DNA of 64,000 bases from Patescibacteria group bacterium (GTDB lineage: Bacteria > Patescibacteriota > Microgenomatia > UBA8517). Shown here piece after piece: positions 6,492 through 58,995 of the stretch (the first letter of the stretch is position 1; the number at the start of each line of letters is the position of its first letter). The notes below the pieces were generated by a model that was given only the letters and a program-made list of their open reading frames with translations, did no database searches and had not been told where the DNA came from. Where the stretch lies: assembly GCA_041499035.1 (NCBI GenBank), contig JBGQJK010000001.1:12314-76313 (forward strand), read 5' to 3'. A program made the position numbers and the translations under genes.

Positions 6492-7778
6492 ATGGATTAC
6501 AAATTACAGACTTTAAGCTCGGGGCTTCGGCTTCTGACAGTTCCCATGCCGGGGCTTGAATCGGTTACAGTCACTGTTTGGGTTAAAACGGGATCGCGCT
6601 TCGAAGAAGCAAAAGTTAGCGGCATTTCCCACTTTCTGGAGCATATGGTTTTTAAGGGTAGTAAAAAACGCCCCAGCGCCAAGGCAATTTCCGAGATAGT
6701 GGATTCCATTGGTGGTGAATTTAATGCCGGAACTAGTAAAGACTGGACAAATTTTTATATTAAAACCAGGGTAGGGAACATCGAAACCGCAATGGACGTG
6801 TTAGCCGATATGGTTTTAAATCCTCTATTAAAACCGGAAGAGATTGAAAGAGAAAAAGGCACGATTATCCAAGAAATTGCCATGTATGAAGACACGCCCA
6901 TGATGCATATCGGCGATGTTTTTGAAGAACTGGCTTTTGCAGGGAACCCCTTGGGTTGGGACACGGCGGGGACCCAGAAAACCGTTAAAGCGATTAAAAG
7001 AAATGATTTTCTGCGATATAGATTGATACATTATCATCCTGATCAAATGATGGTATCGGTGGTTGGGGGAATAACTGAAAATATTTCAAAGAAACTAACA
7101 GAAAAGTATTTTCAGAATTTCCAATTTCCAAATTCCAAGTTTCAATCAAATTCTAATTTCCAAAATTTCAAAAATAAACAAGCCAAGTCTCAATTAAAAC
7201 TTCAAACTAAAAAGTCAGAGCAGGCGCATTTGATATTGGGTTTTATATCCGAGGGCCGTAATTATGAAGGGCGCTTTGCCCAGAGTCTCCTGGCAACAAT
7301 CTTAGGTGGCGGTATGAGTTCCAGAATGTTTATAGAAGTCCGGGAACGTAGGGGTTTGGCCTATTCAATCAGGACTGGAGTAGACAGATATCAGGAGGTG
7401 GGCTACCTTTCTACATACGCAGGCGTAAGCGTAGATAAAGCACCTGAGGCGGTAAAAATAATACTTGAAGAGCAATATAAGCTTGCGGGAGGGGCTAAGC
7501 CCATTGGAAAACCGGAGCTCCGGAAAGCCAAGGAGTATCTTAAAGGCCATCTGGCATTGGCGCTGGAAGACACTAAAGATGTAACCGCTTTTTTTGCCGA
7601 TCAGGCATTATTTGCCAAAGAAATGTTGACTCCCGAGGAGGTCTACAAAAAAGTCGACAAAGTCACTATTGAAGATGTCCTAACTGAAGCTAAAAAGCTT
7701 TTCGTTCCTGCAAAATTGAACCTGGCCATAATTGGTCCTTTCACAGAAAAGGAAAAATTTGTACAATTGCTCCGATGA
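6492..7778 (+). CDS. M16-family zinc peptidase (insulinase/pitrilysin-like)
   Basis: Inverted zinc motif HFLEH plus downstream E. A Q/N/F-rich low-complexity insertion lies at about 7100-7210. Confidence 0.75.
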   Translation: MDYKLQTLSSGLRLLTVPMPGLESVTVTVWVKTGSRFEEAKVSGISHFLEHMVFKGSKKRPSAKAISEIVDSIGGEFNAGTSKDWTNFYIKTRVGNIETAMDVLADMVLNPLLKPEEIEREKGTIIQEIAMYEDTPMMHIGDVFEELAFAGNPLGWDTAGTQKTVKAIKRNDFLRYRLIHYHPDQMMVSVVGGITENISKKLTEKYFQNFQFPNSKFQSNSNFQNFKNKQAKSQLKLQTKKSEQAHLILGFISEGRNYEGRFAQSLLATILGGGMSSRMFIEVRERRGLAYSIRTGVDRYQEVGYLSTYAGVSVDKAPEAVKIILEEQYKLAGGAKPIGKPELRKAKEYLKGHLALALEDTKDVTAFFADQALFAKEMLTPEEVYKKVDKVTIEDVLTEAKKLFVPAKLNLAIIGPFTEKEKFVQLLR

Positions 7779-55239: not shown

Positions 55240-55878
55240 ATGGTACTTGAAAAAAATCCCAAAACCAGGCCGGTTTATAAGAAACTTCTTGAGCTTGAAG
55301 ACAAAGTCTCCGGCCTTCCATTCCCCAAAATGATAAGGCCCAAGCAGATCACAAGTTCACACTGCGGACCGGCAGTTTTAACCTCGCTTTATTCAAACTT
55401 TGGCGTCAAAGCCAGCCAGAAAGGTATAGTTGCCTCACTCAGGCTCCAAAAGAAGATTATGAAGTACGGGCTGAATATTAAAGAATTAGGCAAGGCCAGT
55501 AGAATCATTGGCAAGGGGGCCTTCGTATTTTGGAAAAAATCCGGCGCGAGGATCAGCGATTTGGAGCTTGCAGTTAATAAATATAAAAATCCCGTCGCGG
55601 TTGAATGGCAGGGGATTTTTTATGAGGAGTCGGACGAGGATAACGGCCACTATAGTATCGTAACCAAGATTGACAAAAAGGCGGGAATAATGAGGATATG
55701 TGATTCGTATCCGCTCTTTGCCGGGGTAGACAGGAAGTTCAAAACTCACGATTTTGAAAAGCGCTGGTGGGACGTAAACATTGTCAAAGGGCGTACATTA
55801 AGGGATAACAAAGTCATGTTTTTGGTAGCTCCAAAAGGCGAGTCCTGGCCCAAAAAACTGGGGATGGTTAAATCCTAA
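55240..55878 (+). CDS. C39-like papain-fold cysteine peptidase domain protein
   Basis: QITSSHCGPAVLTSLYSNFG resembles the C39 Q...CGxAxL catalytic-Cys motif. Confidence 0.45.
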   Translation: MVLEKNPKTRPVYKKLLELEDKVSGLPFPKMIRPKQITSSHCGPAVLTSLYSNFGVKASQKGIVASLRLQKKIMKYGLNIKELGKASRIIGKGAFVFWKKSGARISDLELAVNKYKNPVAVEWQGIFYEESDEDNGHYSIVTKIDKKAGIMRICDSYPLFAGVDRKFKTHDFEKRWWDVNIVKGRTLRDNKVMFLVAPKGESWPKKLGMVKS

Positions 55879-55886
55879 TAAATCAA

Positions 55887-56237
55887 ATGGGTTATGCAAA
55901 TCCAAATTCTGCCAAGTTAAAAATCGGGAGGTATTTGGCGGAGAAATGTAGAGATGGCGTGATGGAGTTTTCTTCAGACGAACTTTCTGAAATCGGCGAA
56001 ATAAGTGATAGTTACAAGGTGCCGGATATTATAAGAAGTGCGTATCCGGGGTTATTTAAATTCCACAGGGGCATGGTAAATTTTATCGCTACGGATTGGA
56101 ATGTTAGAGCGGAAGCTTTGGAAAATCTTGAGTCTCAAGTTCAAAGTTTAGAGGTTTACTCAAGACACGAAAATAAGCCCGCAGAGAGCCTCAGGGAACG
56201 CTTGTTATATCAGGTGACCATGGCAAGAAGAAAATAG
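55887..56237 (+). CDS. hypothetical protein
   Basis: An ORF only. Confidence 0.3.
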   Translation: MGYANPNSAKLKIGRYLAEKCRDGVMEFSSDELSEIGEISDSYKVPDIIRSAYPGLFKFHRGMVNFIATDWNVRAEALENLESQVQSLEVYSRHENKPAESLRERLLYQVTMARRK

Positions 56238-56255
56238 TTTGGAATTCCTCGTTGT

Positions 56256-57320
56256 GTGCTTCCGTTAAACCTGTTAGATTTATCTTTACACAAATTTATG
56301 AATGTAGCGCTAACTTATAACGTCAAGAAAAGCAAACCTTCAGTTAGCCTGGAAAAACAGACGGATATAGAGTTTGATTACCCGGAGGTTAGCTATGCCG
56401 AAAAGGAGGCCATTAAGAGTTTTGGGCATAAGGTTTTTATGGTCGAGGCCGATGAAAACGCATTTATAAAATTAAAGAAATTAAAAGGCAAAATCGACAT
56501 CGTTTTCAATGTTGCAGAAGGACTTTGGGGGGAAGCCCGGGAGACCCAAATCCCCATGATCTGCGAGATCCTCAGGATTCCATATACCCACTCAGGCCCG
56601 ACCACGCACGCAATTTCCCTTGATAAATCTTTTACCAAACTGATTTTAAAAGGCGCCGACGGCATAAACGTGCCCGACTCTCACGTAGTCAGATCTAGTG
56701 ATTATATGATTCCAAAAACATTGAAATATCCATTGATAGTTAAACCAAATTCAGAGGGATCGAGCAGGGGAGTTCTCGATAAGAATGTTGTCCGTGACGC
56801 AAAAGACTTAAAAAAACGGATTGAGATAACCTCCGAAAAGTTCACAAAGGAAGTCTTGGTGGAGGAGTATATAGAAGGCAGGGAGTTTACGGTTTCCGTT
56901 ATAGGGAATGAACAGCCGGTGGTACTCCCTATCGTCGAGCAAAAATTCGGCTTCTTACCTCCCGGCATGAACAAAATTGCCAGTTACGAGCTTAAATGGT
57001 TATATGAAGACACCCTAAAAGATTTGCACGACGCCTATGACTGTCCCGCAAAGTTGACTAAAAAACAGAAAGATTTAGTTGTAAGCACTTCCGAAGAAAT
57101 CTACAAACTTTTGGATATCCGCGATTGTGCCAGAATTGATTACAGGTTGGACAAAGATGGGACTCTCTATTTTTTGGAAATTAATACTCTTCCGGGCATG
57201 AACCCAACCCTTGACGGGATTTCATACCTCCCGATTGCGGCAAGAGCCGCAGGAATGAGTTACAAAGAGCTAGTGGGGAAAATACTGTCTTTGGCTTGTG
57301 CCAGATATGGCCTCGATTGA
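56256..57320 (+). CDS. D-alanine--D-alanine ligase-family ATP-grasp enzyme
   Basis: LIVKPNSEGSSRGV and EINTLPGM. Confidence 0.65.
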   Translation: MLPLNLLDLSLHKFMNVALTYNVKKSKPSVSLEKQTDIEFDYPEVSYAEKEAIKSFGHKVFMVEADENAFIKLKKLKGKIDIVFNVAEGLWGEARETQIPMICEILRIPYTHSGPTTHAISLDKSFTKLILKGADGINVPDSHVVRSSDYMIPKTLKYPLIVKPNSEGSSRGVLDKNVVRDAKDLKKRIEITSEKFTKEVLVEEYIEGREFTVSVIGNEQPVVLPIVEQKFGFLPPGMNKIASYELKWLYEDTLKDLHDAYDCPAKLTKKQKDLVVSTSEEIYKLLDIRDCARIDYRLDKDGTLYFLEINTLPGMNPTLDGISYLPIAARAAGMSYKELVGKILSLACARYGLD

Positions 57321-57330
57321 AATCCACCGG

Positions 57331-57401
57331 CAGGCCGAGAGGGAATCGAACCCCCAATGATGGTTTTGGAGACCACCGGTATACCATTTACCTATCGGCC
57401 T
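57331..57401 (-). tRNA. tRNA-Trp (anticodon CCA)
   Basis: Reverse complement: acceptor AGGCCGA/TCGGCCT, D-arm GGTA/TACC, anticodon loop CTCCAAA, T-loop TTCGATT. Confidence 0.7.
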
Positions 57402-57660
57402 ATTTCAAAGAATTATTAATTTGCTCTTTTAATGTGACTTTTGCTTTTCCTCCGCCTTTCAGATATCTTTCCCGAGCCTGAGCGTCTTTTTGGTCCAGGT
57501 ATGCCTCGTAGTATATCAATTTTAAAGGTTTTCTAAAAGAAGTTGAGATTACAAGTCCATCCTCATGCTCCTTCAATCTTAATTTCAAATTTGAAGTGTA
57601 ACCTGTGTAAATTTGTCCATCTTTAAGACTTTTTAGAATATAAACGTAATACACAAGCAA
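57400..57660 (-). CDS. GIY-YIG nuclease-domain protein
   Basis: VYYVYILKS...GQIYTGYTSNLKLRLKEHE. Confidence 0.75.
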   Translation of the reverse strand: MLVYYVYILKSLKDGQIYTGYTSNLKLRLKEHEDGLVISTSFRKPLKLIYYEAYLDQKDAQARERYLKGGGKAKVTLKEQINNSLK

Positions 57661-57689
57661 TTATAACCTTTTGGAGGGAATCGCCCCGC

Positions 57690-57745
57690 AGCTGCGGGGT
57701 TGGAGACCGCTGTCCGACCACTGAACGACACCCCTATAACCGCCT
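57690..57745 (-). pseudogene. tRNA-Trp-derived partial copy (anticodon arm to T-arm)
   Basis: It shares GGTCTCCAA and CGATTCCCTC with tRNA-Trp at 57331-57401. The intervening sequence is replaced by the palindrome CCCCGCAGCTGCGGGG, and no acceptor-stem complement is present. Confidence 0.4.
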
Positions 57746-57800
57746 AATTATACTTTATATGTGGTCAAACTAGAATCCCTATGTTAAAATACTCTCTACT

Positions 57801-58193
57801 ATGGGCTTTTTTAACAAGGGTAAGGATCGAAAATTGAGCACCGCCTTGAACGGGGGTGTTGATGGCGGATCTGGTACTGATTTTCACAAACAGCGAGAGA
57901 TAGACATTATAGAGGCAGTTTTTGGTACTCGTTCATCAGATTTGGATCAAAATGTATTAGCCATTGATAATCCGCGGACTATCGGAAAAAGAGGCGGCCG
58001 CACGGTTTCTTTGGATACTTTAGCTGGGGACACGCTTGACCAGCAAAGGCTTTTGGATAAACAGATCGTTGAGGAAAATATGGGTCATGGGGCCGAAGCA
58101 CCTAAAACAGGAGGAAAAGCACCTTGCCAATTAGTTCAGGAAGAAAAGGCCGGGAAAACCGGTTGGTTTGGCAAAAGAAACAAGGAAGGCTAA
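57801..58193 (+). CDS. hypothetical protein
   Basis: An ORF only. Confidence 0.3.
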   Translation: MGFFNKGKDRKLSTALNGGVDGGSGTDFHKQREIDIIEAVFGTRSSDLDQNVLAIDNPRTIGKRGGRTVSLDTLAGDTLDQQRLLDKQIVEENMGHGAEAPKTGGKAPCQLVQEEKAGKTGWFGKRNKEG

Positions 58194-58387
58194 AGATGAA
58201 GGTTGAGGGAGGTCAAATTACAATTGGTGAGAGGATATTTAGAATTGGTGGACTAAATTCCGTCACTCCTGTGGGGTCTCAGCAGCTCAGACAAAGAGTT
58301 GACGAAATTCGGCAGTTCTTAAAAGAGAAAAGTACAAAAAAAGTTCAAGCAGCTAAAAAGGGCGTAGTATAAAATTACTCACTTCAG

Positions 58388-58573
58388 TTATTTTAACTTC
58401 GAGGATTCTTTGTGAAGCTGGACTTTCTTGCAAAACCTGCAGTACTTATTAAGGCCAAGCTTACCCTTGCCTTTTGTGTCCATGTTTACCTTGTTTCTGT
58501 CTGTGATGTAATTCTGGTTTTTACAGACAGAGCAAATCAAAGCTACAATTTCGCGCGCCCCTTTTTTAGCCAT
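58388..58573 (-). CDS. rpmG: ribosomal protein L33 (Cys4 zinc-ribbon form)
   Basis: CSVCKNQNY...CRFCKK. Confidence 0.75.
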   Translation of the reverse strand: MAKKGAREIVALICSVCKNQNYITDRNKVNMDTKGKGKLGLNKYCRFCKKVQLHKESSKLK

Positions 58574-58651: not shown

Positions 58652-58723
58652 GCCTGGGTAGCTCAGTGGCAGAGCACGTACTTGGTAAGTACGGGGTCGT
58701 GAGTTCAATCCTCACCTCAGGCT
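58652..58723 (+). tRNA. tRNA-Thr (anticodon GGT)
   Basis: Acceptor GCCTGGG/CTCAGGC (one G-U pair), D-arm GCTC/GAGC, anticodon loop TTGGTAA, T-loop TTCAATC. Confidence 0.7.
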
Positions 58724-58747
58724 CAAATATATACCGATCAAATATTA

Positions 58748-58819
58748 GCCGATGTAGCTCAGCGGTAGAGCACCTGTTTTGTAAACAGGGGGTCGATGGT
58801 CCGAATCCATTCGTCGGCT
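58748..58819 (+). tRNA. tRNA-Thr (anticodon TGT)
   Basis: Acceptor GCCGATG/CGTCGGC, anticodon stem CCTGT/ACAGG, anticodon loop TTTGTAA. Confidence 0.7.
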
Positions 58820-58823
58820 CAGC

Positions 58824-58908
58824 GCTGAGGTGGCGGAGTGGACAAACGCACGAGACTGTAAATCTCGCGGCCGAAAGGCCTACATAGGTTCGAATCCTGT
58901 CCTCAGCA
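58824..58908 (+). tRNA. tRNA-Tyr (anticodon GTA), class II with long variable arm
   Basis: Acceptor GCTGAGG/CCTCAGC, anticodon loop CTGTAAA, variable arm CGGCCGAAAGGCC. Confidence 0.75.
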
Positions 58909-58995
58909 CTCACATACGTTCGTGCTTTGGCCAGTTTTCGATAGTGCAGATTGAGGATTTACTTTTTGCACACGAATCCTGTCCTCAGAACTCGT

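Follow-up and report, generated by a model that had tools for sequence, protein, structure and literature searches.

Ssn proteins (cd10448) are single-domain GIY-YIG enzymes of ~94 aa that act as site-specific single-strand DNA nucleases, binding a hairpin repeat named NTS or SRM, with the core ATTCCCGC-N4-GCGGGAAT, and cutting 5′ of it (Chenal et al, 2025; PMC11893778). For SsnA, the sequence of the stem matters but that of the loop is unimportant, binding depends critically on the C after the palindrome and cutting on the three bases upstream of it, and RNA is not bound (PMC11893778). Such hairpins flank 71% of ssn genes, Neisseria carries hundreds of dispersed NTS repeats, and the NTS-ssnA-NTS arrangement was considered by the authors to resemble an insertion sequence (PMC11893778); the term "tRNA" is absent from the main text of that paper. 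Here, we describe a locus of an ultra-small bacterium of the Patescibacteria, or candidate phyla radiation (CPR), in which a small GIY-YIG gene and a GC-rich hairpin are combined with two tRNA-Trp sequences, one disabled (the pseudo-tRNA) and one intact, within a 64-kb stretch of contig JBGQJK010000001.1 that was analysed as a whole and is called the window below. We consider it probable that a compact cassette of ~0.4 kb has colonised the tRNA-Trp locus of this bacterium and that it represents an Ssn-like, hairpin-directed nuclease module replacing tRNA genes. Our confidence is very high for the architecture and its family and good for past mobility, and an Ssn-like mechanism, proposed by analogy, is put forward only tentatively. 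What is most likely new, in comparison with the described systems, is an Ssn-like nuclease-hairpin module that sits within tRNA genes and takes their place, its hairpin being a variant that the published motif does not cover; in our literature searches, no report of a connection between small GIY-YIG genes and tRNA genes in CPR was found.

The cassette reading is preferred because the architecture recurs, empty and revertible sites exist, and the open reading frame (ORF) of the nuclease is under purifying selection. The related loci, which are designated by L numbers, comprised 80 loci with relatives of the ORF, L157 and L186 from a scan for the palindrome, and four loci obtained by exact-protein look-up; L232–L235 were picked via the neighbouring Ddl-like gene, with 76–78% identity. 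On the minus strand of the window, the order is -10 box, pseudo-tRNA-Trp, GIY-YIG ORF, and intact tRNA-Trp, as follows.

57747..57752, minus strand: TATAAT -10-like box, 11 nt upstream of the pseudo-tRNA, as read in the sequence
57735->57673, minus strand: whole pseudo-tRNA-Trp, by alignment with intact tRNA-Trp genes
57700..57735, minus strand: 5′ part of the pseudo-tRNA, tRNA positions 1–37, with the acceptor 5′ strand, intact D arm, anticodon-stem 5′ strand, and anticodon loop CTCCAA
57684..57699, no strand assigned: GC hairpin CCCCGC-AGCT-GCGGGG, in place of tRNA positions ~38–55
57673..57683, minus strand: T-loop and T-stem 3′ remnant CGATTCCCTCC of the pseudo-tRNA, with no 3′ acceptor strand and AAAAGGT next
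Between pseudo-tRNA and ORF, minus strand: spacer of 29 nt, with AAGG and a second TATAAT (57665–57660)
57400..57660, minus strand: single-domain GIY-YIG nuclease gene, 86 aa from TTG at 57660, with 84 aa from GTG at 57654 likelier
57331..57401 (57329 also given as the end), minus strand: intact tRNA-Trp(CCA) of another sequence type (AGGCCGATAGG...), by ARAGORN and Rfam

The first-pass annotation, made from the letters of this stretch, had reported a tRNA-Trp, a GIY-YIG ORF, a palindrome, and tRNA segments shared with an upstream fragment, and all of them were found in place by ARAGORN, Rfam, the PF01541 match, and the exact repeats (GAGGGAATCG at 57339–48 and 57674–83; TTGGAGACC at 57367–75 and 57700–08). 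Its outline of the fragment was correct in that parts of the anticodon arm and T arm are present but was incomplete, in that the fragment runs 5′ to 57735 and includes the acceptor 5′ strand and the D arm. From 57735 to 57673, the sequence reads AGGGGTG TC GTTC AGTGGTC GGAC A GCGGT CTCCAA, then CCCCGC AGCT GCGGGG, and then CGATTCCCTCC, so that it represents a nearly full-length tRNA-Trp from which the 3′ acceptor strand is gone and in which the hairpin has been swapped in for the anticodon-stem 3′ strand, the variable loop, and the T-stem 5′ strand. To judge from this alignment, its homology to tRNA-Trp is clear. For the fragment at 57673–57735, ARAGORN called no tRNA, a cloverleaf with a paired acceptor stem and T arm was not formed, and the Rfam tRNA model gave 16.6 bits (E 5.3, model positions 6–65), not reaching the gathering score of 29; at the gathering score, no described RNA family was matched by the fragment in a search of 57600–57800, and with the limit relaxed to E ≤10, Rfam gave nothing other than tRNA. 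The earlier view of it as a disabled tRNA copy agrees with these results, whereas its derivation as a partial direct repeat from the adjacent tRNA does not hold, the two being of different tRNA-Trp types and the shared 9-mer and 10-mer being conserved segments in 8/8 aligned tRNA-Trp sequences. Because its first 36 nt are closer to the intact tRNA-Trp of L002 (32/36 identical) and to that of L235 (28/36) than to the adjacent tRNA (22/36), the most natural reading of the fragment is that it remains from a tRNA-Trp of the original type and was not copied from its neighbour. The tRNA-Trp gene that normally follows rpmG and the promoter is now a pseudo-tRNA, and the intact tRNA of the other type supplies the function.

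With regard to past insertion, the locus was compared with its empty and filled counterparts. L232–L235 have an uninterrupted tRNA-Trp of the pseudo-tRNA's type, preceded by a comparable -10 box, and neither a hairpin nor a GIY-YIG homologue is present within 6 kb. L068 has two tRNA fragments, one of them 5′ and upstream of the ORF and the other 3′ and downstream of the intact tRNA; both terminate in a hairpin, and when joined, minus one TCCA, they give a canonical 72-nt tRNA-Trp that is called by ARAGORN; by this reconstruction, L068 is an insertion of a hairpin-ORF-tRNA-hairpin cassette into the anticodon loop. Presence and absence at a conserved site with the target disrupted, as is typical of homing, is therefore seen with L232–L235 and L068, and these loci bear out the original proposal of a small nuclease element inserted at a tRNA-Trp gene. 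L007 has the same structure as L068, with complementary acceptor strands on its two remnants, and in L003, at a tRNA-Cys, the tRNA numbering runs on without a gap from one of the two remnants to the other. At L008:2001–2255, an in-frame TAA at codon 29 makes the ORF a pseudogene, and remnants of three different tRNA-Trp genes are present. Closer to the window, L241 (ORF 80% identical) has the same arrangement, and in L240 (ORF 86%) the intact tRNA is of another type and is followed by a 3′ remnant, with a hairpin, of the tRNA type found in the window. Relatives therefore do keep the arrangement, as the first-pass annotation had envisaged, but not with the functional second tRNA envisaged alongside, the fragment never being a complete tRNA. 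The genes downstream are different in the window, L240, and L241, the Ddl-like gene is not beside the cassette in L240 or L241, and a 130-aa ORF near the pseudo-tRNA of the window has no counterpart in L235; because downstream synteny fails in these comparisons, the right-hand boundary of the insertion is not definable in the window.

The association with tRNA genes was general among the relatives. A same-strand tRNA was present ≤30 nt after or ≤250 nt before the ORF in 50/93 copies, with a tRNA starting ≤30 nt after it in 24 and a tRNA ending ≤250 nt before it in 27. A CPR genome of ~1 Mb has ~45 tRNA genes, and such neighbours would be expected in <1 of 93 ORF copies. The ORF tree groups by genomic context. 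The clade of the window consists of 15 loci with 64–86% identity, in which the ORF is immediately upstream of tRNA-Trp (14 loci) or tRNA-Cys (one locus), and a tRNA 5′ fragment with a hairpin of the CCCGC/GCGGG stem was found 12–42 nt before the start in 14/14 loci with a readable upstream region; the 15th, L240, is at a contig end, where only the hairpin tail is visible. In a second clade, 27 ORFs are located 43–250 nt downstream of Lys, Glu, Arg, Met, Gly, Gln, and His tRNAs, and in a Verrucomicrobia clade there is no same-strand tRNA nearby. Clades other than that of the window are thus found at His, Ile, Lys, Glu, and other tRNAs; the His loci L012 and L044 show the same design with a CCGCCGAWTCGGCGG hairpin, and the Glu locus L029 has two hairpins.

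Some features of these relatives were observed in addition. At L044:2331–2430, the hairpin-bearing pseudo-tRNA-His was called as tRNA-Arg(tcg) by ARAGORN, a false call because the hairpin mimics an anticodon arm. In the second clade (L023, L042, L043, L056, L059, L064, and others), in which complete tRNAs of many isotypes precede the ORF, between one and four palindromes of the type GAGCTNAGCTC or CCAGCTNAGCTGG are present over the tRNA 3′ end, ~20–260 nt upstream of the ORF, and they copy the last bases of the tRNA in alternating orientation. In several of these loci, L023 and L056 among them, the ORF is followed by a tRNA 3′ fragment that resembles a T arm.

The encoded protein matched Pfam PF01541 with an E-value of 2.4e-15 over residues 4–72 of 86 aa, as a single domain. 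A database protein of 84 aa is 100% identical to it, and the shorter form is likelier because the homologues begin at the GTG at 57654. Y7, Y18, G20, R28, and E64 were invariant among 47 homologues, so that the catalytic Tyr, Tyr, Arg, and Glu in a single domain of ~90–100 aa that are characteristic of Ssn proteins are all present. The dN/dS values were 0.07–0.14, from which the ORF is evidently under purifying selection and functional. By profile, the UPF0213 structures BH0048 (PDB 1ZG2) and EF2693 (PDB 1YWL) were matched with E-values of 2.9e-12 and 4.2e-9, respectively. A comparison by hhalign with proteobacterial relatives, which were the real proteins retrieved with a consensus query, gave a probability of 98.6% (E 6e-16), and the loci of those relatives carry canonical SRM hairpins; blastp against one such SRM-flanked relative, P0321, gave 40% identity (E 9e-13). 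PHROGs and PADLOC had no family for the ORF, and NCBIfam had none above cut-off. There is no C-terminal DNA-binding domain in the 84–86-aa protein. No ORF besides the GIY-YIG gene is present between the fragment and the tRNA, and no tyrosine or serine recombinase and no HUH Y1 transposase was found.

The hairpin of the window is the palindrome CCCCGCAGCTGCGGGG at 57684–57699, which is the sole copy in the window at ≤3 mismatches, with 0.06 expected by chance. No second CCCGC-N4-GCGGG occurs within the 64 kb, which hold just three GC-rich hairpins of at least 7 bp, and the hairpin folds as RNA or DNA. Over 16 units of the window's clade, stem pairing was kept in 96/96 cells, five pairs being invariant and the outer one being C-G in 13 units and T-A in three, that is, one covarying pair, whereas the 4-nt loop was found as AGCT, AGTG, AGCG, GGCT, CGCT, AGTT, or AGCC. 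Because the 6-bp stem is kept and the loop varies, the perfect palindrome, to which significance had been attached at first, is on this alignment incidental, being one loop variant of a conserved stem. By analogy with the Ssn hairpins, the accompanying suggestion of a role for the hairpin in recognition or cleavage is plausible. The related units have two types of hairpin junction. In that of the window, the anticodon loop CTCCAA precedes the hairpin and a C and the T loop follow it, with the C after the hairpin (C57683 in the window, directly after it) in 16/16 and CAA before it in 14/16; in the other, the D loop is followed by the hairpin and then by TCCAAAACC. In metagenome and viral scans for the 16-mer, 148/150 occurrences were accounted for by high-GC DNA or ordinary terminators, several of which directly follow tRNA genes, and the two relevant ones were L157 and L186. 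The 16-mer alone is not diagnostic because so many of its occurrences are generic.

The intact tRNA-Trp(CCA) is the only tRNA-Trp in the window and was called by ARAGORN and by Rfam (64.3 bits). It is identical to that of L241 at 71/71 positions, and the neighbouring ORF is identical to that of L241 at 50/84 third codon positions. The TAG stop codon of the ORF (57402–57400) overlaps tRNA nucleotides 1 and 2 (A and G). A TAG stop that shares its AG with the first bases of the tRNA was found at 10 loci, and a TAA that overlaps or abuts the tRNA at three more. RNase P cleavage would leave the mRNA without a complete stop codon, and the sharing of the stop codon with the first bases of the tRNA suggests a bacterial analogue of mitochondrial tRNA punctuation.

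Among the known systems, the cassette of the window resembles Ssn in several respects: the protein is a single-domain GIY-YIG of similar size (~90 aa), the hairpin has the inner stem CCCGC/GCGGG, a 4-nt loop that is free to vary, and a C after it, the order hairpin-gene-hairpin is found in the relatives L068, L007, and L003, and the family matches SRM-flanked relatives by profile. Unlike Ssn loci, the hairpin is embedded in tRNA fragments and coupled to a replacement tRNA, and the published SRM pattern fails on it, only the inner stem and the loop length being shared. As a regular expression (HGTCWYN(0-2)YYVSBRHN(0-5)WNVSBRGN(0-2)RNCYNB), this pattern had no match at 57000–58300; the lone match in the window was at 7543, and among the 80 loci only L012 and L029 matched, with ~1 match per set when the 80 loci were shuffled. 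Canonical Neisseria-type NTS/SRM hairpins (TGTCATTCCCGCGAAGGCGGGAATCTGC) were also observed near GIY-YIG ORFs in two CPR genomes, at L012:1898–1925 and L029:1614–1641.

The T4 Seg enzymes (SegB in a tRNA cluster) and I-TevI share with the cassette a GIY-YIG catalytic domain, presence or absence among relatives, and a selfish gene between or beside tRNA genes with read-through expression, but they are ~200–250 aa, compared with 84 aa and no DNA-binding domain here, and lack the conserved hairpin and the flanking by a disabled and a replacement tRNA. Integrase islands and prophages also insert at tRNA genes, so that one intact tRNA remains together with a partial copy displaced in direct orientation. 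In contrast, the element of the window is ~0.4 kb with no integrase or recombinase and with a hairpin at the junction, and the displaced part in its clade is the 5′ portion, not the 3′ end. As in IS200/IS605 and REP/RAYT, a hairpin beside a short specific sequence marks the ends, with a hairpin at both ends in L068 and L007; unlike in those systems, there is no HUH/Y1 transposase, and a GIY-YIG nuclease alone is incapable of strand transfer. The UPF0213 proteins BH0048 and EF2693 are similar in size and fold family, with 39% identity to BH0048.

If the cassette reading is correct, the promoter of the old tRNA would drive transcription of the unit, and RNase P would separate the mRNA from the tRNA, taking part of the stop codon. 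The hairpin would be the cognate site of the nuclease in single-stranded DNA, as the NTS hairpin is for SsnA, and the cut would be expected a few bases 5′ of the hairpin, inside the anticodon-derived GGTCTCCAA, on the non-template strand. Acting with the conserved tRNA segments on either side of the hairpin, such breaks could lead to recombination with other tRNA-Trp genes, for example, those of incoming transforming DNA, by which the cassette would be spread and mosaic tRNA fragments would be left behind. A rather unlikely extension is that these are autonomous mini-elements of ~0.35–0.45 kb in which a GIY-YIG single-stranded DNA nuclease drives insertion into tRNA genes without a transposase or integrase, overwriting the resident tRNA with a carried or rebuilt copy; they would then act as a tRNA-replacement drive across CPR lineages, probably via natural transformation, and the pseudo-tRNA 5′ half would be a working part, as the cleavage site and a homology arm. 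An RNA-guide role, in which the 5′ tRNA half would be the guide and the hairpin the scaffold, was also considered and found no support, and SsnA does not bind RNA.

Several observations weigh against the cassette reading. The published SRM pattern is not matched by the hairpin of the window, which is single-copy in 64 kb and not a dispersed repeat as in Neisseria, and UPF0213 BH0048 is as close to the protein (39%, E 2e-12) as the SRM-flanked relative is, with cd10448 and UPF0213 not being separated. The rejoining of DNA is beyond a hydrolytic nuclease acting alone. The window retains no 3′ remnant of the old tRNA. The pseudo-tRNA is of the old type and the intact tRNA of the new type in the window and L241, and the reverse is the case in L002; moreover, the pseudo-tRNA 5′ parts in L009, L005, and L157 are identical or nearly so to the full tRNA. 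Because of the reversal in L002 and these near-identical copies, no single model can be given for which tRNA is the cargo, and each of the insertion models tried (the tRNA as cargo, landing upstream of a resident tRNA, or a circle integrated by a single crossover) fits some loci, fails others, and was rejected as a general one. Furthermore, the pseudo-tRNA 5′ part is identical at 33/36 positions between the window and L241, compared with 50/84 for the third codon positions and 45–60% for the flanks, and this above-neutral conservation hints at a function beyond that of simple debris.

That last point would be accommodated by a domesticated, vertically inherited operon, in which a housekeeping nuclease gene, co-transcribed with tRNA-Trp, has the pseudo-tRNA and hairpin as a functional 5′ leader that acts in stability, processing, or the control of expression, and nothing is mobile today. 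The strong purifying selection on the ORF, the conservation of the hairpin along with the pseudo-tRNA 5′ part between the window and L241, the stop/tRNA overlap kept in >10 loci, and the lack of dispersed hairpin copies in the window are all consistent with it. We nevertheless regard it as improbable, given the patchy distribution with empty sites in relatives, the differences in tRNA type, remnants, and downstream genes between close relatives of the ORF, the switch from Trp to Cys inside the clade and the many isotypes at which another clade is found, the pseudogenised ORF in L008, and a leader fold that is not more stable than shuffles (z = -1.4 as RNA and -1.0 as DNA). A free-standing GIY-YIG homing endonuclease, which would cut the double-stranded intact tRNA-Trp gene so that repair copies the cassette in, with the hairpin as an immunity patch and the new tRNA as a resistant allele, would explain the presence and absence among relatives, the reconstructable empty site, and the fact that the hairpin replaces exactly the segment differing between the old- and new-type tRNAs, and it has a precedent in T4 SegB, a GIY-YIG homing enzyme in a tRNA cluster (PMC13096335). 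However, the protein is only a catalytic domain of ~85 aa, and the NCBIfam model for group I intron endonucleases, TIGR01453, gave 17.1 bits against a cut-off of 56. The intact tRNA in L009, L005, L157, and L003 is the same or nearly the same as the disrupted copy and would also be cleavable, and the stem is invariant at loci with different tRNAs, which argues for a recognised element rather than a scar. We thus hold homing of this type to be decidedly improbable.

It is much harder still to account for the locus by chance, that is, by a decayed tandem tRNA duplicate with a leftover terminator as the palindrome and an unrelated nuclease gene. The generic nature of the 16-mer in the metagenome and viral scans would fit such an origin, but there is no T-run after the hairpin on either strand, the terminator scan found no terminator-like site in 57200–58000 and none between the parts of the cassette, and the three-part layout in all 15 loci of the clade, with analogous layouts at other tRNAs, contradicts it, so that we judge it very improbable. 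The well-preserved 5′ half with its paired D stem, as well as the ARAGORN call for the hairpin-bearing His copy in L044, might instead be taken to indicate that the fragment is a genuine tRNA of unusual form, or one half of a tRNA that is split or contains an intron. Against this, no 3′ acceptor strand is found anywhere downstream in the window, ARAGORN and the 16.6 bits of Rfam gave no support, the truncation points differ between loci, and a complete tRNA-Trp is present 270 nt away; this is the least probable of the explanations, and a group I intron or a split tRNA was discarded because neither a 3′ exon nor an acceptor partner is found downstream and the locus has a complete tRNA.

The cassette reading, if correct, would be of interest in several ways. 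The Ssn family was described only in 2025, and the CPR loci would provide natural evidence that nuclease-hairpin modules insert into genes. These modules would choose tRNA genes and compensate with a replacement tRNA, and one filled site is revertible in silico to a perfect tRNA. The occurrence of mosaic or duplicated fragments of tRNAs in CPR genomes may also be explained, as may some cases in which tRNAs are called falsely or missed, and a possible route for the exchange of tRNA genes between lineages is suggested. A 60-nt single strand from the window represents a concrete testable substrate.

With regard to expression, the TATAAT at 57747..57752 is presumed from its position to be the promoter of the original tRNA-Trp gene, now serving the pseudo-tRNA, the ORF, and the tRNA. 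A TATAAT is likewise placed upstream of the intact tRNA-Trp of L235 and of the pseudo-tRNAs of L241 and L186; a consensus promoter scan did not call the box of the window, and there is no good -35. The second TATAAT (57660–57665) is 5 nt before the GTG start and occurs at the same place in L240, L241, and L242, and it may be an internal promoter for a nearly leaderless mRNA.

Upstream of the pseudo-tRNA, two small plus-strand ORFs of 130 and 82 aa are located at 57801–58372, between it and rpmG (58388–58573, minus strand). Neither had a PADLOC match, and the 130-aa ORF also had no Pfam match. In L241 and L186, rpmG is directly upstream of the pseudo-tRNA, and because of this the 650-nt segment with the two ORFs may be another insertion. 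On the other side, a C39-like peptidase gene and an ATP-grasp D-Ala-D-Ala-ligase-like gene are present at 55240–57320, corresponding to a Ddl/C39-peptidase/Ddl-like cluster that is conserved in L232, L236, and L237. An ORF for a LAGLIDADG endonuclease was observed between tRNA-Tyr and tRNA-Thr at L235:4838–5629, and the equivalent cluster of the window (58652–58909) does not have it.

Related hairpins were also found in other settings. At L006:2325–2433, tandem repeats of the unit CTCTCTCTAACAATCTCATCC GAGGTCTCCAA-hairpin-CGACTCATGGCGGGCCTG follow the intact tRNA-Trp and continue to the end of the contig. The same hairpin core is contained in a larger repeat, GGGATTGCTTCG...hairpin...CTCGCAATGAC, which is present at L009:1820–1860 and in L088, L126, L132, and L194 and recurs in unrelated metagenome contigs.

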